The notes below the pieces were generated by a model. That model was given only the letters and a program-made list of their open reading frames with translations, was not told the DNA's origin and did no database searches. From assembly GCF_011045215.1 (NCBI RefSeq), contig NZ_CP049202.1: DNA of 64,000 nucleotides; one strand, 5' to 3'. Below are positions 1-53,902 of this stretch, in pieces (position 1 is the stretch's first letter; each line of letters begins with the position of its first letter). The translations under genes were made by a program, and so were the position numbers. The DNA is from Escherichia coli (lineage in GTDB: Bacteria; Pseudomonadota; Gammaproteobacteria; Enterobacterales; Enterobacteriaceae).

Positions 1-423
1 GAAAAAATACGGCAGTGGCGACAACGGTACTCCCGGCCGATAGTTAATGACCTGTTTGCCTGGCTTGAAGAGCAGGAGCCGTGCTGTCCGCCCGACGGGC
101 CATTAAATAAGGCGATTAACTATATCCTGAACCGACGCGATGAACTGAGCTGCTTCTTGGGTGACGGAGCCGTGCCCCTGGACAACAATATCTGCGAGCG
201 AGCTATCCGCCCGGTGGTCATGGGGCGGAAAGCGTGGCTGTTCGCCGGATCACTGATGGCCGGAAACCGCGCGGCACAGATAATGAGTCTTCTGGAAACA
301 GCAAAACGTAATGGTCTGGAGCCACATGCTTGGCTGGCAGACGTCCTGACGCGTCTGCCGGAGTGGCCAGAGGAGCGACTGGCAGAGTTATTGCCTCTTG
401 AGGGATTTACCTTCACCGGGTGA
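1..423 (+). CDS. IS66-family transposase TnpC, C-terminal fragment (5' end lies outside window)
   Basis: Frame open from base 1; translation ends ...NNICERAIRPVVMGRKAWLFAGS...LPEWPEERLAELLPLEGFTFTG, the conserved C-terminus of IS66 TnpC; compare the two intact TnpC copies at 3058-4650 and 6210-7781. Confidence 0.8.
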   Translation, partial: EKIRQWRQRYSRPIVNDLFAWLEEQEPCCPPDGPLNKAINYILNRRDELSCFLGDGAVPLDNNICERAIRPVVMGRKAWLFAGSLMAGNRAAQIMSLLETAKRNGLEPHAWLADVLTRLPEWPEERLAELLPLEGFTFTG

Positions 424-1282
424 GTGATACCTGCCGTCAGGTGTTCGTGCATCGGGCCATAACCTGCAGTCGGGAGTTGAACACCTGACGACAGGAAATG
501 AGCCAGGCCAGCAACCACGCGGGCTGACAGAGAATCAGAACCTGAATCAGCCCGGAGTTATTCCCGTGTCAGTACTTCACGACCTGACGCAATTACCCGA
601 CTCAGTACTTCAGAGCCCACCGCCGGTACCTGCCCGGCGATCCCCCCTGTACAACCCCATCGTCAGACGGCGCTCATTCGTATGCGCTGCCAGTGACTCG
701 CCTGAAAAATGCGTCAATATGAGTTCGCCGGAACGATACGAGAAACACAAAAAAGCGGCGTCAGAAATCAACTTTAAGCTCGCGTTCCAGTTTATCGCGA
801 CAGAAATAATCCGGCGGGGACTATCCCGAAACGACTGGAGCATCTGCGGGGTGCTCTGGAAGCTGTGTTCATAACAAAACGCCCTCAACCATCAAGGTCG
901 AGGGCAGTTAAGATATCAAAAACCCGTTATCCGGTGAAACGCAGTACCACTCCGCTTAAGTGAACAGCATTACCCCAATGGAGGTTTTTATTGGATGAAT
1001 TAACTTGTATGACAAGGGGTACAGCAGTAGTAACATCCATTGATTTTATGCTCTGGCCAGCGGCTTTTTGCACTCAATACTGCACCATGACAGGATGAGT
1101 GATGGCCCAGAGGAATTTGGTTCTCTGACGCTGGCATGTAAGAGCAGCCATTGGTCGCATCATGTACTTCATGATCACCATTTAATTGTGGATTCTTGTT
1201 AATTATATAATTAGGCATTTACATATCCATTGTTAGCAATTGCAAATTAGACTGCTTATTTTCCTTTTAAAATAAATGGTTA

Positions 1283-2104: not shown

Positions 2105-2395
2105 TCAATAGACTGCGTGAATATCGATGGTTGCACCACATGCCTGAGCATATCTTGTCAAAGTTTTCATACTGGCTCCTAAAGGATTACTTTCCAGCCG
2201 GCTGATGGCTGACGGGCGTACCCCCATTCGTTCGGCCAGCGCTGACTTTGTTAACCCCGCTTTTTCTCTCATTTCGTACAACATTTCTACCATCTCCAGT
2301 TCTTTATCGGCATCTTCATAGCCTTTGACAGCTTCCGGAGTATTAAGCAGTTTTTGCTTTACCTGGCTGAACGGAACACCTTTTACTTTCATCAT
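2105..2395 (-). CDS. higA: HigA-like antitoxin, XRE-family helix-turn-helix
   Basis: 96 aa with C-terminal HTH (LTKSALAERMGVRPSAISRLE); 4-bp overlap with the upstream toxin gene. Confidence 0.7.
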   Translation of the reverse strand: MMKVKGVPFSQVKQKLLNTPEAVKGYEDADKELEMVEMLYEMREKAGLTKSALAERMGVRPSAISRLESNPLGASMKTLTRYAQACGATIDIHAVY

Positions 2396-2703
2396 TTCAT
2401 CTCCTTCAGGCGCATCCTGGCGATTTCAATAGCTTTTGTTGGTGTCTTTTGCGTCTTTTTCACAAATGCATGCAGCAGATAGATTTCATTACCCGTTGCA
2501 TAAGCGTACAGTGTCCTTGCGACATTTTTATCCCCGACTCTCAGTTCAAAAAGTCCTCCACCAATTACACGGCTGTGAGGCATTTTCATTTTATTGCCTT
2601 CCTGTTCCAGCCGTTCAATCAATCTGGCCATGCGACCACGTAGATTATCTGGTAATTCAATCAACTCATTCAGTGCGGCCGGGTGAGTAATCACATTAAA
2701 CAT
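2392..2703 (-). CDS. higB: HigB-like toxin (RelE/ParE superfamily), toxin-first operon
   Basis: Start at internal ATG 2703 with GGAGG Shine-Dalgarno; about 103 aa; toxin-upstream/antitoxin-downstream order typical of higBA. Confidence 0.65.
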   Translation of the reverse strand: MFNVITHPAALNELIELPDNLRGRMARLIERLEQEGNKMKMPHSRVIGGGLFELRVGDKNVARTLYAYATGNEIYLLHAFVKKTQKTPTKAIEIARMRLKEMK

Positions 2704-2800
2704 ATTATAGCCTCCGAAAGGATAAAATACATCAGAACAGGAAAATTGCACAAATATAAAATTTCACTGATAAGTGAAACACATGTTAAGTACAGTTTTG

Positions 2801-2913: not shown

Positions 2914-3057
2914 CCCCGGCCCTTGTATGTAATAGGACTCGATGGCTAGCTACCATCATATGAAGCAGAGTGAGCTTGTCCCAGCCCTGAACAGTCAGAC
3001 TTTGATTAGCAGCAAAAGCCCTCTGCTGTAAGCGTCAACGGAGCACCGTATTGACGC

Positions 3058-4650
3058 TTATTTATTGGTGAGAACCACGTTCCATGGCAGGAGTTCGTCA
3101 ACACGGTTGGAGGGCCATTCCGGCAGTACGCTCAGAATATGGCGCAGATACGCTTCCGGATCGATACCGTTCAGACGGCAGGTGCCGATCAGCCCGTATA
3201 GCAGTGCACCACGCTCGCCGCCGTGATCGCTACCGAAGAACACGTAATTTTTCTTTCCAAGACAGACTGCACGAAGCGCTCTTTCCGCTGTGTTATTGTC
3301 CGTCTCCGCCAGTCCGTCATCACTGTAATAACAGAGGGCGTCCCACTGATTCAGTACATAGCTGAACGCTTCGCCCAGTCTGGATTTTTTCGACAGCGTG
3401 CCATTCTTCTCCACCATCCATTCATGCAGCGACGTCAGTAACGCTTTGCTTCGCTGCTGTCTGACTGCAAGACGCTCTGACTCTGGTAATCCCCGTATCT
3501 CATCCTCGATGGCGTACAGTTCACTGATTCGCTTCAGGGCTTCTTCTGCCGTCGCACTTTTGCTGCTGATGTATACATCGTGGATTTTTCTCCGGGCATG
3601 GGCCCAGCACGCAACTTCTGTCAGCGCACCACCTTCACGTTCTGCACTGAACAGCCTGTCATAACCTGTGAACGCATCCGCCTGCAGGATACCCCGGAAG
3701 GGGCGGAGGTGTTGCTCCGGGTGTTTCCCCTGCCGGTTCGGTGAGTACGCGAACCAGACCGCCGGAGGAGATGACGAACCCGCATTGCGATCATCCCGGA
3801 CATACGTCCAGATGCGCCCTGTTTTCGTCTTTTTCAGGCCCGGTGCCAGTACCTTTACCGGTGTGTCGTCAGTGTGAAGCTTGCGGGTATTCATCACATA
3901 ACGGTACAGGGCATCATTCAGCGGTGTCATTAACTGGCAGCACGCGTCAACCCAGTTGGAGAGTAATGCACGGCTCAGTTCGACACCCTGTCGGGCAAAG
4001 ATTTCACTCTGACGATACAGTGGCAGGTGTTCGCAGTATTTTCCCGTTAACACGCGGGCAAGTAATCCGGGGCCCGCGATACCACGCTCTATCGGGCGGG
4101 ACGGCGCCGGTGCTTCAACGATGCAGTCACATTTTATACAGGCTTTTTTTACCCGTTCTGTGCGGATCACTTTCAGGGCGCTGCTCACCAGTTCCAGTTG
4201 TTCTGCACTGACTTCCCCCAGATAATCCAGCTCACCGCCACACTCCGGGCAACAGCTTTCTTCAGACTCCAGACGCTGTATTTCACGGGGAAGGTGTGCC
4301 GGTAACGGACGACGATGGCGCGACTGTCGCAACTGGCGGGGAACCTGTGGATCGTCTTCCCGCCCACTGTAACGATCGCTGTCCTGTTCGCGTTGTTTCA
4401 GCAGGGCCTCAGCCTGTTCAACTTCACGACGCAGTTTTTCAGAACGGGTACCGAACAGCATCCGGCGCAGTTTTTCTATCTGAGCCCGCAGATGTTCTAT
4501 TTCCCGTTCATCTTCTTCGATCTTTTCTTCGGCACGTGCCAGTGCAGAGCGCAGGAAGGCCTCCGTCTCTTCAACCAGACTCAGTTGCTGGTCTTTCTGG
4601 CGGAGCTGGCTTTCCAGTTCTGCAATGCGAATGAGGTATTTCTGACTCAT
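3058..4650 (-). CDS. tnpC: IS66-family transposase TnpC
   Basis: 530 aa; leucine-zipper N-terminus, CxxC zinc motifs, KYxEHLPLYRQ motif, DDE region, C-terminal LPWN. Confidence 0.9.
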   Translation of the reverse strand: MSQKYLIRIAELESQLRQKDQQLSLVEETEAFLRSALARAEEKIEEDEREIEHLRAQIEKLRRMLFGTRSEKLRREVEQAEALLKQREQDSDRYSGREDDPQVPRQLRQSRHRRPLPAHLPREIQRLESEESCCPECGGELDYLGEVSAEQLELVSSALKVIRTERVKKACIKCDCIVEAPAPSRPIERGIAGPGLLARVLTGKYCEHLPLYRQSEIFARQGVELSRALLSNWVDACCQLMTPLNDALYRYVMNTRKLHTDDTPVKVLAPGLKKTKTGRIWTYVRDDRNAGSSSPPAVWFAYSPNRQGKHPEQHLRPFRGILQADAFTGYDRLFSAEREGGALTEVACWAHARRKIHDVYISSKSATAEEALKRISELYAIEDEIRGLPESERLAVRQQRSKALLTSLHEWMVEKNGTLSKKSRLGEAFSYVLNQWDALCYYSDDGLAETDNNTAERALRAVCLGKKNYVFFGSDHGGERGALLYGLIGTCRLNGIDPEAYLRHILSVLPEWPSNRVDELLPWNVVLTNK

Positions 4651-4680
4651 GGCCGTTTTTATAATGCGGTCAGGAGTTTT

Positions 4681-5031
4681 TTACAACATTGTCAGTGAGT
4701 TAAGGCGGGATGTTTTTGGCTGACGCCAGTCCAGCTTATCGAGGAGCATTGCCAGTTGCGAACGGGTAATGGATACCTTGCCGTCACGTACCGCAGGCCA
4801 GATAAACTGGCCTTCCTCCAGGCGTTTGGTGAACAGGCACAGACCATCAGCATCAGCCCAAAGAATTTTAACGGTGTCACCCCGTCGGCCACGGAAGATA
4901 AACAGGTGACCGGAGAAGGGATTAACATTTAACACATGCTGTACCTGTTCACCCAGCCCGTTGAAAGACTTACGCATATCGGTTATCCCGGCAACGAGCC
5001 AGATACGGGTACCGGATGGGAGTGAGATCAT
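4681..5031 (-). CDS. tnpB: IS66-family TnpB (Orf2)
   Basis: 116 aa, conserved IS66 Orf2 sequence (WLVAGITDMR...LFIFRGRRGD). Confidence 0.9.
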   Translation of the reverse strand: MISLPSGTRIWLVAGITDMRKSFNGLGEQVQHVLNVNPFSGHLFIFRGRRGDTVKILWADADGLCLFTKRLEEGQFIWPAVRDGKVSITRSQLAMLLDKLDWRQPKTSRLNSLTML

Positions 5032-5447
5032 CTTCCCCTCCCGGTCAGTTCACGAATCAATACAGTGAGCAGCTCTGGTGAAGGATTTTCCAGTGTCATG
5101 TTACCGTGACGGAACTCCACCTTGCAGGAGCTGGCACTGACAGTAGTCTGAGTGGATAAGGGCGGAGTAAGAGCAGCCATCGGTTCTTTCGGCTCATCAG
5201 GCGTTATCTCTACAGGTAATAATTCAAGGCCTGCGTCAGAAGTGGTTGTCACCGGAAGACGCCGTGATATACGCCCTTCGTTTTGCCAGAGTCTGAGCCA
5301 TTTGAAAATAACATTATCATTGACGCCATTTTCTCGTGCAATCTGAGCCACACAAGCACCGGGTTGTGATGCCAGTTCAACCATACGAAGTTTGAATTCA
5401 TTCGAATACTTTTTACGAGGTTCTTTTCGCCAGTCCTGTAATTCCAT
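5028..5447 (-). CDS. tnpA: IS66-family TnpA (Orf1), HTH protein
   Basis: 139 aa; 4-bp overlap with tnpB; motif GACVAQIARENGVNDN. Confidence 0.85.
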   Translation of the reverse strand: MELQDWRKEPRKKYSNEFKLRMVELASQPGACVAQIARENGVNDNVIFKWLRLWQNEGRISRRLPVTTTSDAGLELLPVEITPDEPKEPMAALTPPLSTQTTVSASSCKVEFRHGNMTLENPSPELLTVLIRELTGRGR

Positions 5448-5532
5448 ACTTAGATGTCCGTCTGTGTCAGATGGGCGTCTAAGTTACCAATTCTTGTCTA
5501 ATGGCTACATACGGCGGTCGGTTTACGCTTAC

Positions 5533-6179
5533 GTATTTTTTCCACAGGACGTTCACGGATGAACTTCTCAATGCGATAAAGACCCGCGATTTTTCTCAGC
5601 GCCATGGCTGCACGGGGCTCCCTGCTGGCCTTATACAGACTGGCGAAGCCGCGTCTTGCGTGGCTCCAGCAACAGGCGGATGTGATACCGGGGTGATTAT
5701 CCGCCAGAGATTTGTACACGCTGTATCCGTCACTCACCAGCGTGCCACCACGCCAGCCCTGCAGGCAGGCCTCAGGATATCTGAGGGCCCGTCCGGTCTG
5801 CGAGTCAAGACAGACGACCGGCGGGCCGCTTCTTTCTCCGCTGACGTAAGCCCACAGCCAGCCGGAGCAGGATTTACCGCCTTTCCGGGTATCAAGGAGC
5901 CTCAGGGACGTTTCATCTGCATGAATAACATCCCGTGTCAGAAGCTCGTGGCGTAACAATTTTGCCAGCGGGGCCAGTGCAGCGCCAGCAACACCGACCA
6001 TATCCGCCATTGTACTGACGGGGAGCTCCACACCCATTCGGGAGAAAATGTGCTGCTGGCGATACAGGGGCAGATGGTCGGTATATTTGCTGATGACAAC
6101 CTGTGCGATGACCGATGGCTCAACAGCACTTTTCGGAAGGATATGTGCCGGCATTTTTCCGCTGAACACTTTCTCACAG
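5533..6179 (-). pseudogene. IS66-family transposase TnpC fragment (central region) of a third, disrupted IS66-family element
   Basis: Translation ...[22 protein letters not shown]...ACCWSHARR... aligns to residues about 190-400 of TnpC; bounded by IS66 copy 2 target duplication on one side and the IS66 copy 1 terminus on the other. Confidence 0.7.
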
Positions 6180-6209
6180 GTAAGCGACTCGTCAGAACCG
6201 TATTGATAT

Positions 6210-7781
6210 TTACTGAGAGCTCAGATCAACTTTCCAGGGCAACAGATCGCGTACCCGGTTTGCCGGCCAGTCCTGGATATGTTCAATGACGTAACGCAGC
6301 CACTTTTCTGGCTCCACATTGTTCAGACGGCATGTGCCGATCAGCGAGTACAACACCGCCGCATGTTCACCACCGCTGTCGGAACCCGCGAACATCCAGT
6401 TTTTCCGGCCTACGGCCACTCCCCGTAAGGCGTTCTCTGCGATGTTGTTGTCGATTTCCACCCAGCCATTACTGCAGTACACGTTCAGTGCATCCCACTG
6501 TTTCAGCAGGTATGCGAACGCTTTTGCCGTATCTGAGTGACGCGACAGTGTTTTCATCTGTTGCTGTATCCAGTCATACAGTGACTGCATCAGTGGCGCG
6601 GCTCTGGCTTTTCTTGCCGCCAGACGCTGTTCTGCTGAACAGCCCCGGACCTCTGCCTCGATGGCATACAGTTCACCGATACGCTGCAGGGCTTCCGTGG
6701 TGATGTAGGTGGGCGCTCTTGCATGCACATCGTGGATTTTTCTCCGGGCATGAGCCATACACGCGGCTTCCGTTATTCTGCCGGATTCGTATAACGCCCG
6801 GTAACCACCGTAAGCATCGGCCTGAAGCACACCGCTGTAACCGGCCAGGTGATTTTGTGGATGGATACCTTTCCGGTCCGGACTGTACGCGAACCAGACC
6901 GCCGGGGGCATCTGTGAACCGGCGTTACGGTCATCACGGACGTAGACCCACAGCCGGGCTGTCCGGGTTTTACCGCTGCCCGGCTCCTGGACCGGGACGG
7001 GGATATCATCGGCATGGAATTTACCGGGCATCAGCACATACTGGCGCAGTACGTCATACAGCGGCTCCAGCAGTTCAGCAACAGCACCTGTCCAGCGCCC
7101 CAGTGTGGCACGGCTCAGCTCCACTCCCTGACGACGGTATATTTCTGACTGGCGGTATAACGGCAGATGGTCTGCATATTTCCCGGTGACAACATGGGCC
7201 AGAAGCCCCGCTCCGGCATAACTGCGTGCAATGGGTTTTGAAGGTACTGGTGCCTGCACGATATGGTCGCACCGGCAACAGGCCTGTTTCGGACGTTGTG
7301 TTTCGATAACCTTAAAGGCGCTGCTGATAAGCTCCAGTTGCTCTGACACATCACATCCCAGAGAACTGAGTTCACCACCACAGGCAGGACAGCATTCCTC
7401 TTCCGGCCGGATAACCCGGGTTTCACGGGGAAGTGAGGCCGGTAACGGTTTACGGGCTGAAGACTGGCGCAGGGCGGATGGCAGTACCGGGTCATATTGC
7501 TCACCCAGCGTTTCCGCCATTTCTTCCTGAAGTGCGCTGATTCGCTCCTGTGCTTCCTGTATCTGCCGTTCGGTTTTTGCACGAAGTTTTTCTGAGCTTT
7601 TACCGAACTGCATACGTTGCAGTTTCGCAACCAGCGCCTTCAGCCGGTTGATTTCGGAAGCATAAGCCGCCACCCGCTGTGAGAGCAGGCGGTTGTATTC
7701 AGCCATCTGGCGGATGGTGTCCTGTTGCGTCTGCAACAGTGCCCGCAGGCGGGCGTTCTCATGAGCAAGTGAGGTGTCCAT
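6210..7781 (-). CDS. tnpC: IS66-family transposase TnpC
   Basis: 523 aa, colinear with the copy 1 TnpC ([12 protein letters not shown]-terminal LPWK). Confidence 0.9.
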
Positions 7782-7800
7782 ATCCTCACTTTACAACGGG

Positions 7801-8148
7801 TTATATGCGGATTCCAGCGCGTTCCGTTCGTTTCGGGTGCTTCCAGTTGATACCTTCAAGAAGCATGGATAACTGAGCCGGAGTAAGGTGCACCTTGCCG
7901 TCACGGGTGACTGGCCAGACGAAGCGGCCCCGCTCCAGGCGTTTGGTGAAGAGGCACAGTCCGTCACTGTCAGCCCACAACACTTTTATCTGGTCACCCC
8001 GGCGTCCGCGGAAGATGAACAGGTGTCCGGAGAACGGGGCATCCTTCAGGACGTTCTGAACTTTTGATGCCAGGCCGTTAAAGCCATTTCGCATATCGGT
8101 GATACCTGCAACCAGCCAGATACGCGAACCTGCAGGGAGAGATATCAT
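7801..8148 (-). CDS. tnpB: IS66-family TnpB (Orf2)
   Basis: 115 aa, WLVAGITDMR...LFIFRGRRGD. Confidence 0.9.
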   Translation of the reverse strand: MISLPAGSRIWLVAGITDMRNGFNGLASKVQNVLKDAPFSGHLFIFRGRRGDQIKVLWADSDGLCLFTKRLERGRFVWPVTRDGKVHLTPAQLSMLLEGINWKHPKRTERAGIRI

Positions 8149-8825
8149 CAGTGGCTGCTCCCTTTTATTTCGCGGATAAGTGTCTGTAATAACGCCGGCG
8201 TCAGTTTACCTTTAAGCCTGAGAGTTCCGGCCGGCAGAACCAGCTCACAACACAGACTGTCGGACGGTGTATTTATCTGCTCTGGTTCCTGTGCGGGGGC
8301 CGGGATTTTATTATCCGGCTCCGGCGTTAACGTCACGGGAAGCAGTGCCGGCATATTTTTTCCGGAAGGCAGCAGGCCACCTTTCCGGTATTGATGGCGC
8401 CAGTTGAAGAGCAGGTTATCGTTGATTCCGTTTTCCCGGGCGATCTGCGCCACACAGGCTCCGGGCTGCAGTGACTGCTCCACTAAGGCGATTTTAAACT
8501 CATAAGGGAAGTTGGGCCGCCGGGGACGTTTTTTTACCACGGGGGCTTCGGATATAACGGTGCTTTCAGGACGTACGACTGGTACCGTGGAAAATTGTCC
8601 GTAAAGGCAGGCATCAAGTTCCTGCTCCGACATGCCTGCGGGCAAAGGCCACGAAAGGCCAGCTCTCCGAAAGCGCACGAACATACTACAAACTGTTGAT
8701 TTTGGTACACCCAGGCGACGCCCGGCCACAACCCGGGGTAAATGTTCTTCAAAGTGAAGACGTAAAGCTTCAGTGATCCAGGTCCGGTGTTTCATACGAT
8801 AGTGTCCATTAAAAATGATGGACAT
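8148..8825 (-). CDS. tnpA: IS66-family TnpA (Orf1); true start probably internal
   Basis: C-terminal half matches IS66 Orf1 (GACVAQIARENGINDN); ORF-track N-terminal extension of about 80 aa is uncertain. Confidence 0.65.
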   Translation of the reverse strand: MSIIFNGHYRMKHRTWITEALRLHFEEHLPRVVAGRRLGVPKSTVCSMFVRFRRAGLSWPLPAGMSEQELDACLYGQFSTVPVVRPESTVISEAPVVKKRPRRPNFPYEFKIALVEQSLQPGACVAQIARENGINDNLLFNWRHQYRKGGLLPSGKNMPALLPVTLTPEPDNKIPAPAQEPEQINTPSDSLCCELVLPAGTLRLKGKLTPALLQTLIREIKGSSH

Positions 8826-8878
8826 TATTTTTGTAGAGCCGGAGGAAACAGACCAGACGGTTTAAATGAGCCGGTTAC

Positions 8879-9332
8879 TCTCACAGCAGGGACAGCTGTA
8901 CTGCGGACGGACATAGCGGTGGACCACAACCTGTGCGGGGATATATTCCATTTTCCCGCTGACTTCATCGCGAATGAAGTGCAGGGGGGCATCACAGTCA
9001 GGACAACGTTCCTCAGCTGGCGGGATAACCTTTTCAGCACGGGGAAGATGTGAAGGCAAGGGCTTACGAACAGGACGTGTTGTTGTTTTTTCTTCGTCCC
9101 CGGTCTGAGGAAGCAGTTTGTCCAGATACGCCGAGATTTCTGCGATATCCGCGTCAACATCCTCTTCGAACAGGGAACACTGCATCCCGGCCAGCGATTC
9201 GCATTTTTTACCAAAACGCTGCTGGCGTGCGAGCTTCATCTGCTCTATATGAACGCATCCCGTTTGCAAGGCTTTCGTAGTTTTGACATTGACGGTAGGT
9301 TGCAGCTCTATATCCGGCCTTGTTGCAGCCAT
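8879..9332 (-). pseudogene. IS66-family transposase TnpC N-terminal fragment (same disrupted element as 5533-6179)
   Basis: ...KLARQQRFGKKCESL...KPLPSHLPR...CPDCDAPL...YSCPCC matches the TnpC N-terminal region; interrupted by IS66 copy 2. Confidence 0.7.
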
Positions 9333-9517
9333 GAAGCTGCGGGCCCCTATGTAATACGCTGACTCGCGCCTTATTCTCCCAGCGAGCTTTAATCTCCAGA
9401 GCAGATTCAGGTTTAGCGAGTCCCGGTCTTACCTGTCGTTGTCATCACTACGGCTGCCCACGCAACCTTTCAGCATTCACCCTTTTGTAAAGAGTTTATG
9501 TTTATCGGTATCAGCGA

Positions 9518-10504
9518 TTAATAAGGCCTGATACTGACATGATTTTTGTCGTATTTACGTCCGTGAGCGGCTATTGCCCACACCGTTCGCGCCAGCTTGT
9601 TTGCCATTGCGACGATTGCCACGCTGGCCGGACGACGTTTTTTCAGTTCGGTTATCCACGGCCCAGGTTCTTTGGTCAGTAATGCTGCCGCCCTTGCACC
9701 ATGAATAAACAGGGTTCGCAGATATTTATCACCACGTTTGCTTATTCCCAGCAGGCGGATTTTTCCTCCTGAGCCTGTCTGTCTGGGCACCAGACCAACA
9801 TAAGCCGCGAACTCTCGCCCTGATTTAAACACTGATGCTTTCCCCATGATGGCCAACGCTGCCGTTGCAATAAGTGGACCAACGCCAGGAATATCCAGCA
9901 ACCGTCTACAGGTTTCATTCTGTCTCGCCACACTGGTAAGCTGTTTTTCTATATCATCTATCAGTGAGTCCAGTTCATTCAGCCTGTTGTACTGATTTTC
10001 CAGCACTGTAATGAGATACAGTGGCAGTCTCTCTTTCATCCGCTCCAGTGCTTCAGGGAACTCCCGTTCCATCGCTGCCCGACCTTTGTGGATGGTTTCA
10101 CCAAACTCCAGTAACGTCCCGTGCAGGGCATTAATTTGCGCGGTCCGGAACTTCACCAGTTGTCTGCGGGAACGGTGCAGAACCAGTATTGACTGTTGTT
10201 CTTCTGTTTTGACGGCGATTTCTTTACCTGGCTGCTGTACCGCCATCCAGATAGCTCGCGCATCCATCACGTCATTCTTATTGCCCATGACGAATGCTTT
10301 AACGAAGCGAGCCTGCAACAACCGGACTTTGTGTCCCTGCTTTGTTAATTCACGCGCCCAGTGCCGGGAGCCTCCACAAGCTTCCATGCCAATCAGGCAG
10401 GGTTCGCGGTTACTGAAATACGCCAGAAAATCCTGACGACGAACCTGCTTATCCACCACTTCCCCTGTGTGCTCATTGATGAAGTGAACCTGAATGACAT
10501 GTTT
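9518..10504 (-). pseudogene. IS110-family transposase, 3' part (codons about 13-340), separated from its 5' end by IS21 insertion
   Basis: ...LIGMEACGGSRHWARE... and C-terminal motifs of IS110/IS1111-type transposases; the ORF-track N-terminal 18 codons derive from the IS21 terminus. Confidence 0.75.
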
Positions 10505-10605
10505 TGTCAGCGCCAGTGATATAAGACGGTAATTCACCATTTGGATTGTCCGCTCCACCCAACATGTTGTTTCCTTAAGGTTCTCACACCAGAAAGGACA
10601 TCAAC

Positions 10606-12575
<1,970 letters not shown>

Positions 12576-12639
12576 CGAAAGTATCTTAGCGGGCATGAAA
12601 ATGGCAAATAACGGTCAAACATCGTGGCGTTGACAGTTT

Positions 12640-36888: not shown

Positions 36889-36981
36889 ATAGCTGAATTG
36901 TTGGCTATACGGTTTTTAGATGGCCCCGGTAATCTTTCTAGCTCGCCAAAGTTAAAGAAGATTATCGGGGTTTTCACTTTT
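36889..36981 (+). ncRNA. copA: CopA-like antisense RNA (replication copy-number control)
   Basis: About 92 nt between the promoter and a U-tract; 13-bp stem CCCCGGUAAUCUU/AAGAUUAUCGGGG with a loop containing CGCCAAA; position between repA2 and repA1 as in IncFII. Confidence 0.55.
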
Positions 36982-38765: not shown

Positions 38766-38915
38766 TTACTTCCGTGCTTCGTAGGCCAGAGTTATCTGCA
38801 CCACTGTATTTCTCCTGTGAATATTCAGCTCACACAACCGTTCCCTGAATATCAGTGAAAAACACAACAACGTGGCGCACACAGCGAGCAACCCTATAAG
38901 GGCATATTTCGTCAT
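38766..38915 (-). CDS. srnB: Hok/Gef/SrnB-family type I toxin (49 aa)
   Basis: MTKYALIGLLAVCATLLCFSLIFRERLCELNIHRRNTVVQITLAYEARK: one transmembrane helix plus conserved LCEL; GAGAGG Shine-Dalgarno; in-frame upstream extension from 38972 resembles a mok/srnB-prime reading frame. Confidence 0.75.
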   Translation of the reverse strand: MTKYALIGLLAVCATLLCFSLIFRERLCELNIHRRNTVVQITLAYEARK

Positions 38916-39260
38916 AAACTTTGACCTCTCTGCAAGGAAGAGGCTACAATCAGTAGTGTTAAGGTACTTCATGCAGACCTCACGAGTTAATGGATTAACG
39001 AGTGGGGTCTTCGCATTTCTGGTACCTGCGTCTTGCCTGAACCAGAAAGGCTCAGACACCCGCAGCGATAATACCACATTCCCGTTTGCCGGCCATGTAC
39101 CTGCATTTTCCGGTTATTATTATAAAAACGCCGGGGACGGGGAAAATTTGCTTTTTCCCGTTTCCGGGGTTGGACAACTGAGCAACGCGAAGGCGTCAGT
39201 TATTTCTGTTTATTACATTCTTCTGTATATTTTCTTTTTACAATTCGACACTGCCTTATC

Positions 39261-51059: not shown

Positions 51060-53902
51060 AATGGTCCCTTCAGTTGATTCTTTTTCTCATCAATCATTTT
51101 TTTCACAGTCTCTTCTGATGGCTCAGGTATTATCTTTTGACTTTCTCGCTCTTCATTATATTTATTATTCTGAGATAATGCTTCTGTTTTATGGTGATTT
51201 TGTAGTTCAGAATACTGTTTTCTTACAATATTTTCCTCGCCTCGGATGCTGTTCTGAGTATCTCCGATATTACCTCGATATTCTGTGACCATATTATCAA
51301 CCTGATGTTTTACATCATCACGGATATTACTGTCCTGCGTTCTTTGATCAATAATGGCCTGATGCCCCTGATGGTCAGCAATAATATCCTGGCTGCCACC
51401 ACCCGAAGGTACGCTCTCCATTCCTTTACCAATATCGCCACGGGATTCACGCCAGGCATTATCAACACCAGGCTGTATCTGTTCCTGCACAAAAGACCAG
51501 GCCATCGCCCGACGGCGTTCTGCAATCTCCGGCGAACTGGTATTTGTCAGAATAGCTTCGGCATCCTGCGGTGCGTGTTTCATCACATACTGTGCAAACT
51601 GTTGCGACAAATCTTCACTCATCTGCCCACTCATGCTTTCAGTACGGGATGCCATTTCAGCATATTCATGGCTGCGGGTCATATTCGTCGTGTACTGGTC
51701 GTAACTCTGTTTCGCTGAGTTCAGGGCTGCAGACAGCTGGTCCACACGGGAATCGGCATTATTGTCAGTATGGCTGCCGGACTCACTGACTTTGCGACTG
51801 GTAAAGTAATCGCTGGCCTCTTTAAAGTCCTTACTGGCTTTAGCATCGATATCATGTCGAGCATCATGGGTAGCCCTGCTGCCACTACTTGCAGAATGTG
51901 AATCATCATCCGTTCGATCAAGACTTCCCTTAAATCCGCCTCTGACACCAACTCCACCACCAACCCCAAGAATTTTAGGTTTAATCCCCCATTCAGCATG
52001 AGCATCTGCATATCCGCCATACGAGAACTTAGAACCTGTTGATGCCAGTTCCTGAGTCGCCTGCTCATTACTGATATTATGCGCTTTCGCATAGCTTTCC
52101 ACTGCACTGCGCATACGGCTGGCCATCATGGAGTCCTGTGCGCTCATCGTGCTGTCAGCGCCACCGGTGACAGAATCACTGCTCCCCCGGTTAGAACCAA
52201 ACTGACTGAGCGTATTCCAGGCACTGGCAATACTGCTGCTGAACCCATGCAGGGCGCTTTCTGCTCTGTTCGATGCCTCCCGGGCCATTTCCTGTTGTGC
52301 CGCCGCAATCTGACGCGTTGCATTGATACCGACCGGTAAACGGGACATCGCTCCGCTTGCATCCATAACCATATTACCGTCACGGGTCTGTGTGGCGGTT
52401 GCGCCACTGCCGGTCTGGTACATCATCTGACCAAACGACGTGGTGCTGTTGGTGCTCCAGCTGAAGCCGTTCACGTTTTCCGTCTGCATGTTGCCGTAGG
52501 AGTAATTACCGTCAACCACACTGCCTGCTGCACTGGCCGTCGGACTGATAGATGAAGAGGCGAAGTGGCTGTACACACTGGAAAAACCTGCGCCAAGGCC
52601 TTTTACCATCATCCATGACAACGGGGGTATCATGACAGATATATATCCGGCAGTGGACGCCAGGTCGGAGTATTTCAGCTGTATCTGAGAGAGTTCAGAG
52701 AGCACGACCGGTGCACCATTCTGCTTTGCATAGAATGTCATGGCACTGTTCAGAATGGCATACAGCAACGGCCAGGTCTGGAACCACATCAGGGCAAACA
52801 CATAGCCCTTCAGTACAGACAGCGTTAACCTGTTGAAGACCGCCGCCAGTACCAGGAGCGGGAAGATACCAATGGTAATGCCCACCAGAATGGTCTGCAC
52901 CATCGGCAGGTTTCGCATCAGCACATGACCAATGGAGACATGTGCCAGACGCTGTTTCTCCATCGACGAGGTCGTGGCCAGACTGACCAGGCTGGCGGTA
53001 TCACCGTTACGGGCTGCATTACTGGTGATACCCTCTTTCAGGGCATTCATGGTGACGTTCTGGCGCATAATATGGCTGGCAGACTGGCTGGAGCCGTAGA
53101 AATAACTGTAACTGTCACTCACCAGTTGCCTGAATAACAGGTCCGGGTCCGGTCTGCCGCCAAATATCTGCTGGACATAATAATGCCAGGTCTTGCCTCC
53201 GGTATTCGTATCAAAATTCAGCTTATCCTTCAGTCCGACGGATGCGTCCTTACAGGACACAAACGGCTCTGAACTGTGCAGAAAACTGTAATTATTATTC
53301 GGCACCTGACGTAAAGGGCTGGGCTGAGAAAAGATTATGGTGTACGGGTCAGAGGAGGCCATCAGGTCTTCCAGCGTGTATTTGTGATTCAGGTAAATAT
53401 CACCCAGCACGCAGTTCTGGACGTAGTCCTGAAACAGATTGATGATTTCCGGATTCCGGGACAGAAAATCGGTGCTTTTCACAATCAGGTTCGCCCCGAA
53501 CAGCATGCCTGTCTTGCTGTAGGTGGCGCTGTCAGGCTGAGCGAACACCATCTCATAGCCGGCCACCATTGCATGCCCGATACGGGTCGTCAGTGAAAGT
53601 GGCATCGCCAGTCCGACCGGCACATTATCCACCCGATGGACTTTGACCAGGTCACTGTTATCAATAATCTGCACCGACGTGCGGACATTAACCAGCAGGC
53701 TGATAAGCACAAACACGGCCACCCAGCCCAGCAAATCCATCACGTTGTGCCGCTGTACCCATATCACGGCCACCGCGAGAACAGACAATGTGAGCGCAAT
53801 TTTTTCAATGGAATCCCACGTCCTGGTTCCCATAAAGGCGGCAATGGCGTTCAGGTTATTCCGCAACCATTCACCACCGGCAATCACATAAACTTCATTC
53901 AC
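51056..53902 (-). CDS. traG: TraG mating-pair stabilisation / pilus assembly protein
   Basis: 948 aa; MNEVYVIAGGEWLRN... N-terminus; F-type position and length. Confidence 0.9.
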   Translation of the reverse strand: MNEVYVIAGGEWLRNNLNAIAAFMGTRTWDSIEKIALTLSVLAVAVIWVQRHNVMDLLGWVAVFVLISLLVNVRTSVQIIDNSDLVKVHRVDNVPVGLAMPLSLTTRIGHAMVAGYEMVFAQPDSATYSKTGMLFGANLIVKSTDFLSRNPEIINLFQDYVQNCVLGDIYLNHKYTLEDLMASSDPYTIIFSQPSPLRQVPNNNYSFLHSSEPFVSCKDASVGLKDKLNFDTNTGGKTWHYYVQQIFGGRPDPDLLFRQLVSDSYSYFYGSSQSASHIMRQNVTMNALKEGITSNAARNGDTASLVSLATTSSMEKQRLAHVSIGHVLMRNLPMVQTILVGITIGIFPLLVLAAVFNRLTLSVLKGYVFALMWFQTWPLLYAILNSAMTFYAKQNGAPVVLSELSQIQLKYSDLASTAGYISVMIPPLSWMMVKGLGAGFSSVYSHFASSSISPTASAAGSVVDGNYSYGNMQTENVNGFSWSTNSTTSFGQMMYQTGSGATATQTRDGNMVMDASGAMSRLPVGINATRQIAAAQQEMAREASNRAESALHGFSSSIASAWNTLSQFGSNRGSSDSVTGGADSTMSAQDSMMASRMRSAVESYAKAHNISNEQATQELASTGSKFSYGGYADAHAEWGIKPKILGVGGGVGVRGGFKGSLDRTDDDSHSASSGSRATHDARHDIDAKASKDFKEASDYFTSRKVSESGSHTDNNADSRVDQLSAALNSAKQSYDQYTTNMTRSHEYAEMASRTESMSGQMSEDLSQQFAQYVMKHAPQDAEAILTNTSSPEIAERRRAMAWSFVQEQIQPGVDNAWRESRGDIGKGMESVPSGGGSQDIIADHQGHQAIIDQRTQDSNIRDDVKHQVDNMVTEYRGNIGDTQNSIRGEENIVRKQYSELQNHHKTEALSQNNKYNEERESQKIIPEPSEETVKKMIDEKKNQLKGPL

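Follow-up and report, generated by a model that had tools for sequence, protein, structure and literature searches.

Two IS66-family elements lie next to each other on the DNA analyzed here, and only one of them is bracketed by a perfect 8-bp repeat, TCTCACAG. Does this repeat record a simple and perhaps recent transposition, and if so, of which element and into what target? We addressed the question in a window of 64,000 nucleotides, which is an IncF-type conjugative plasmid with the following landmarks:

about 39-64 kb: tra region
36889-36979: CopA
38905-39061: sok
53077-53162: AS-traG

The bracketed element is composed as follows:

6180-8878, genes on the minus strand: ISCro1 (IS66 family), complete, 2,699 bp; 99.85% identity over bases 1-2699 to RefSeq-annotated copies
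6180-6201, plus strand: terminal inverted repeat at the tnpC-distal end, GTAAGCGACTCGTCAGAACCGT; identical in 12/12 other copies
8857-8878, minus strand: terminal inverted repeat at the tnpA-proximal end, reverse complement GTAACCGGCTCATTTAAACCGT
8148-8825, minus strand: tnpA, 225 aa; HTH_Tnp_1 (PF01527) at residues 102-159
7801-8148, minus strand: tnpB (IS66 Orf2-like), 115 aa; PF05717, E = 2.6e-39
6210-7781, minus strand: tnpC, a 523-aa DDE transposase; PF03050, E = 7.5e-103

The termini were set independently: megablast matches to full-length copies in unrelated contexts end exactly at query bases 1 and 2699. The outer ends of the element, GTAAGCGACTCG… and …GAGCCGGTTAC, recur unchanged in 12 independent full-length copies from replicons of other genomes (L002-L009, L011, L013, L014/L016 and L017), all of which start with GTAAGCGACTCGTCA and finish with AAATGAGCCGGTTAC. 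Its 22-nt terminal inverted repeat is imperfect, with 16 of 22 bases paired, and the end motifs, GTAAGCG on the left and GTAACCG on the right, differ by one mismatch. As the first-pass annotation had proposed, the 8-bp repeat sits directly outside these motifs; the aligned inverted repeats are flush with the duplication rather than elsewhere, and both copies of TCTCACAG abut the termini at 6180 and 8878.

All three genes lie on one strand in the order tnpA-tnpB-tnpC. The tnpA stop overlaps the tnpB ATG by a single nucleotide (TGATG), tnpC begins 19 nt 3' of tnpB, and the three reading frames are full length with no frameshifts. TnpA shares its full sequence with WP_001339397.1, the protein encoded in L003. 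TnpC consists of leucine-zipper, zinc-finger, DDE and C-terminal modules (PF13007, PF13005, PF03050 and PF13817, each above the Pfam curated cut-offs). A DDE TnpC, accessory tnpA and tnpB, imperfect repeats of the GTAAGCG type and an 8-bp duplication together place the element in the IS66 family, the assignment made at first reading. A simple scan picked up no sigma-70-like promoter on the minus strand within the element, and neither the promoter/terminator scan nor the Rfam scan returned anything informative on it.

By ISfinder convention, copies sharing at least 95% nucleotide identity belong to the same IS species. Here the near-identity is indirect, coming from 99.85% identity to copies named 'ISCro1 family' by PGAP and from the published length. 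Judged by its sequence, then, the element is ISCro1, a name that rests on RefSeq/PGAP annotation plus that length. ISCro1 is common: of 5,426 complete E. coli genomes searched by megablast, 1,492 contain copies that span at least 80% of its length, and complete E. coli genomes have roughly 14,000 ISCro1 places. Many of the matches are in one piece (query 1-2699, 99.9% identity), with TnpA and TnpB annotated alongside an 'IS66-like element ISCro1 family transposase'.

The earlier description of the element as intact appears sound structurally, to judge from its open reading frames and its duplication. A structurally complete copy might still be functionally dead, a fossil rather than a recently active IS, and the argument for this comes from substitutions. 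Eight RefSeq copies (L002-L009), compared base by base, share one and the same master sequence. Against this otherwise invariant master the window copy carries four private substitutions, at IS positions 832, 840, 871 and 1860. They include TnpB D37A and TnpC V255F, the latter next to the invariant H256/D258, just before the H256-x-D258 motif, and only one public protein record (QIF16425.1 / WP_164476294.1) has exactly this TnpC. However, the three frames remain open throughout, and phenylalanine at position 255 is hydrophobic like the V, L or I found there in relatives. Column 37 of the TnpB alignment is variable, and alanine occupies it in the host element, as we call the third IS66-family element, different from both ISCro1 and its neighbor (copy 1, 3028-5532), whose tnpC ISCro1 entered. 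Moreover, at least 10 contigs carry the TnpB A37 allele, with the duplications intact at several different sites, so that the allele is compatible with transposition; these contigs are other plasmids and served as further examples of duplications. We consider a dead copy unlikely, while granting it some weight, and favor a structurally intact ISCro1 that arrived by transposition.

The repeat and the target on either side of ISCro1 have these features:

6172-6179, no strand: left duplication copy, TCTCACAG; a single occurrence in the uninterrupted target (L001 4640-4647)
8879-8886, no strand: right duplication copy, TCTCACAG
5533-6179, minus strand: target part 1, the DDE-domain portion of the host IS66-family tnpC (PF03050, protein 7), cut off at 5533 by copy 1
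8887-9244, minus strand: target part 2, the leucine-zipper and zinc-finger portion of the same host tnpC (protein 8 domains)
about 13796 to 5533, minus strand: host IS66-family element, now a nest of insertions, delimited by homology breakpoints

The repeat was found at exactly the positions first reported. TCTCACAG is not rare in the window (5 occurrences on both strands, 1.78 expected), so the evidence lies in its position and not in its count; by calculation, two fixed positions would agree at all 8 bases by chance with a probability of about 4^-8, or 1.5e-5.

The first-pass annotation had called for comparison with the empty site in related sequences, and two replicons supply it. In the chromosome of E. 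coli 52F4 (L001) the target is uninterrupted, with a single TCTCACAG and flank identities of 99.2-99.6%. Window positions 5532-6179 align to 4000-4647 and positions 8879-10506 to 4640-6267, and the two alignments overlap by exactly 8 bp, which are TCTCACAG in its one occurrence there. On plasmid B of E. coli C5 (L010) the host element is complete, with tnpA, tnpB and tnpC all uninterrupted and again a single TCTCACAG; this plasmid is syntenic with the window, sharing 10.3 kb of adjacent backbone at 99.85% identity. The left part of the target, 5533-6179, is 99.2% identical both to L001 4000-4647 and to L010 25077-24430. When the IS and one repeat are taken out in silico, the host tnpC becomes a single open frame, …YSCPCCEKVFSGKMPAHILPKS…, which is the same as in the undisturbed TnpC annotated for E. 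coli 52F4. As a query, the reconstructed 1,261-bp empty site is covered in one piece by five genomes (best identity 99.1%), and many further records span its bases 1-1007, which include the junction at base 647.

That the repeat is coincidental, the element having come by homologous recombination or within a larger segment, could draw on the five occurrences of TCTCACAG in the window and on an IS-rich recombination hotspot in which adjacent copy 1 has mismatched flanks, but this reading is effectively refuted by the empty-site comparison, in which the flanks are contiguous in both replicons around exactly one TCTCACAG, and it also has against it the small chance of a positional match, the in-frame restoration of the host tnpC and the like behavior of 11 of the 12 other ISCro1 copies. 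The ends, three full-length genes, the 8-bp duplication, the uninterrupted target and the restored host frame were all found, and the insertion is simple, in agreement with the first reading. Overall, a single simple transposition almost certainly placed a structurally intact ISCro1 in the tnpC of an unrelated IS66-family element carried by this IncF-type E. coli plasmid.

From what is known of the family, the DDE transposase TnpC, which requires TnpA and TnpB as accessory proteins, would cut the target TCTCACAG with an 8-bp stagger. The IS ends would then be joined to the staggered cuts, and gap repair would leave the direct repeat. The related IS679 reportedly needs all three proteins, TnpA, TnpB and TnpC, according to Han et al. 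2001.

The same signature recurs at other ISCro1 sites. Perfect 8-bp direct repeats flank 11 of the 12 other copies, and every one has a different sequence: CTCCCTGT, ACATAAAA, CCTCAAAA, GATCTTTC, ATTCAACC and CTACAGCC in the first six, and GGCGAAAA, AAATAAAT, TTTCCAGG, AGACGATA and AATTGCTG in the remaining five. The exception is L009, the flanks of which are mismatched. Two of the 13 independent sites examined, the window and L013, lie in an IS66-family tnpC, and at a third, L002, the flanking annotations are of truncated transposase remnants, one an integrase-core pseudogene and the other an IS3-family pseudogene. Such sites could hint that ISCro1 favors the transposase genes of other IS, especially IS66-family tnpC, but we consider this improbable. 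If it did, the bias would reflect IS-on-IS targeting or competition, and not mere survival of insertions in dispensable DNA.

How recent is the insertion? Neither the 72,556 PLSDB plasmids nor the 5,426 complete E. coli genomes include a record that covers at least 80% of a 241-bp probe for the junction. Some matches reached 11-28 bp into the flank; the one inspected (H106, which is L013) is a chance similarity, its target being TTTCCAGG in the tnpC of ISEc8. The junction is thus unique in the collections searched, yet the copy has four private substitutions relative to the master. The suggestion that the insertion was probably recent therefore holds only in a relative sense.

The neighboring copy 1 has GTAAGCG at both ends and, as noted at first reading, no duplication, its flanks being CCTCTGCT and GTATTTTT. 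The first-pass annotation had numbered the two elements as copies 1 and 2. They do share family, gene order and GTAAGCG ends, but they are different IS species: nucleotide identity is 63-75% and extends over partial stretches only, TnpC and TnpB are 52% and 65% identical, respectively, and TnpA has 139 aa in copy 1 compared to 225 aa in the ISCro1 copy. Copy 1 shares 93.6% identity with an element labeled 'ISEc23 family' by PGAP, and on this comparison it is an ISEc23-like IS66-family element distinct from ISCro1. In pISV_IncFII_NDM-5, a relative is flanked by an 8-bp duplication, CACCTGAA.

On its right, copy 1 borders the host tnpC and on its left unrelated DNA, which places it at a rearrangement junction. 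This junction is the product of either an adjacent deletion or recombination between two copies; mismatched IS66 flanks in Agrobacterium have been read the same way (PMC6778807). The left junction is not common to the related plasmids L011 and L012. Inversion of the DNA between two copy-1-type IS is unsupported, as window bases 1-2 (GA) continue host-like sequence and not an IS end. Window 1-611 may be either part of a separate host-like IS or the host element's displaced 3' end.

Two further insertions belong to the nest:

about 9245-12805: IS110-family element within the host element; present in L001, absent from L010
10505-12635: IS21-type element (istA, istB), 2,131 bp, inside the IS110-family element; 4-bp duplication GTTT

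The host IS66-family element is the first arrival. Its extent is given from homology breakpoints, and we found no convincing terminal repeats for it. Since L001 has the IS110-family insertion without ISCro1, the ISCro1 insertion came later than the IS110 insertion or independently of it. Having both flanks still matching, this ISCro1 copy has undergone no later recombination or deletion, and its intact duplication marks it as untouched by such events, unlike copy 1. The simple insertion helps to establish the sequence of events within this IncF plasmid's IS 'graveyard'. It presumably inactivated an already decaying host IS, and no consequence for plasmid genes is apparent. ISCro1 copies are known to serve as substrates when plasmids fuse or undergo deletion (PMC12115866), which makes the intact copy a potential driver of future plasmid rearrangement.

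Beyond correct annotation, the finding matters little: one more simple insertion is documented. ISCro1 was first named in Citrobacter rodentium ICC168 and is widespread on plasmids and chromosomes of E. coli, Shigella and Salmonella. The duplication of IS679 is likewise said to be 8 bp long (Han et al. 2001 being the reported source). In three-gene organization, GTAAGCG-type terminal repeats and 8-bp duplication, IS679 and IS66 resemble the window element, but both are different IS species from ISCro1. IS66 itself makes an 8-bp duplication (PMC6778807), and IS679 is set apart by the C. rodentium inventory, which lists IS679 and ISCro1 as separate entries and in which ISCro1 is the most expanded IS of strain ICC168 (PMC3072379). 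The closest known system is ISCro1 itself, for which an insertion of 2,699 bp with an 8-bp duplication has been published (PMC12115866). The window element agrees with ISCro1 in length, termini, tnpA/tnpB/tnpC order and duplication size, and differs from the common form in its four substitutions, with TnpC V255F and TnpB D37A, and in an insertion site not found in the other records searched. It is an ordinary insertion of a catalogued IS, fully explained and of a kind already known.

The IS66-family element whose tnpC ISCro1 entered, here called the host element, is the third distinct member of that family in the window, and its tnpC carries further insertions:

5533-13796, minus strand, host element, the target of ISCro1
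9245-12805, IS110-family element inside host tnpC (labelled 'RNA-guided transposase' by PGAP)
10505-12635, IS21-type element of 2,131 bp within the IS110-family element
10606-11778, istA of the IS21-type element
11775-12575, istB of the IS21-type element

The IS21-type element breaks the IS110-family transposase gene close to its 5' end and is flanked by a 4-bp duplication, GTTT; the IS110-family insertion has no duplication. In all, the window's host element is interrupted by three other IS elements and cut off by copy 1, the ISEc23-like IS66-family element at 3028-5532. On E. coli C5 plasmid B (L010, approximately 23083-25676), the host element is whole and without interruption, but its tnpC is frameshifted. 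The PGAP annotation gives no species name for the host element, and our search for its terminal inverted repeats returned none that was convincing.

Copy 1 retains intact tnpA, tnpB and tnpC, and its two flanks differ (CCTCTGCT versus GTATTTTT). Because host tnpC lies to its right and unrelated DNA to its left, the junctions imply that the site is the product of a deletion or of IS-IS recombination. The partner junction was looked for and not found; the related plasmids L011 and L012 lack the left junction of copy 1.

Host-like sequence also occurs at the window start:

1-611, orientation opposite to the host element, 3' portion of another IS66-family tnpC that resembles the host's

This segment is ~92% identical to L010 and to the E. 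coli 52F4 locus (L001). Its first bases, GAAAAAATAC, are those of 5533-5542 in inverted form, and the host position matching the window start falls no more than 10 bp from where copy 1 adjoins the host. Since bases 1-2 continue the host-like sequence and do not form an IS end, the segment is probably a separate element, and its match to the copy 1 junction probably a coincidence of the window edge.

ISCro1 copies in two other replicons have been rearranged after insertion. A full-length copy beside a prophage holin gene (L009, NZ_CP027331.1 1555392-1558210) has differing flanks, GCTTGGCG versus GGATAACG. In L018 (AP027900.1) the flanks likewise differ, and both end motifs are present just 2,373 bp apart, so the copy has probably suffered an internal deletion. 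On an ETEC plasmid, beside an AIDA-I gene, ISCro1 lies in tnpC of an ISEc8-family element with the duplication TTTCCAGG (L013, NZ_CP122834.1 65633-68331). After the window, this is a second instance of ISCro1 within another IS66-family transposase gene.

Other plasmid features in the window are as follows:

2392-2751, minus strand, Gp49-like protein (PF05973)
2105-2395, minus strand, HTH_3 protein, overlapping the Gp49-like gene
36889-36979, CopA-like antisense RNA
38905-39061, sok antitoxin RNA
53077-53162, AS-traG

The first two are probably a HigB/HigA-type toxin-antitoxin pair (2105-2751, minus strand). The three RNAs are as expected for a plasmid whose replicon is of IncFII type and which carries hok/sok together with an F-type tra operon.
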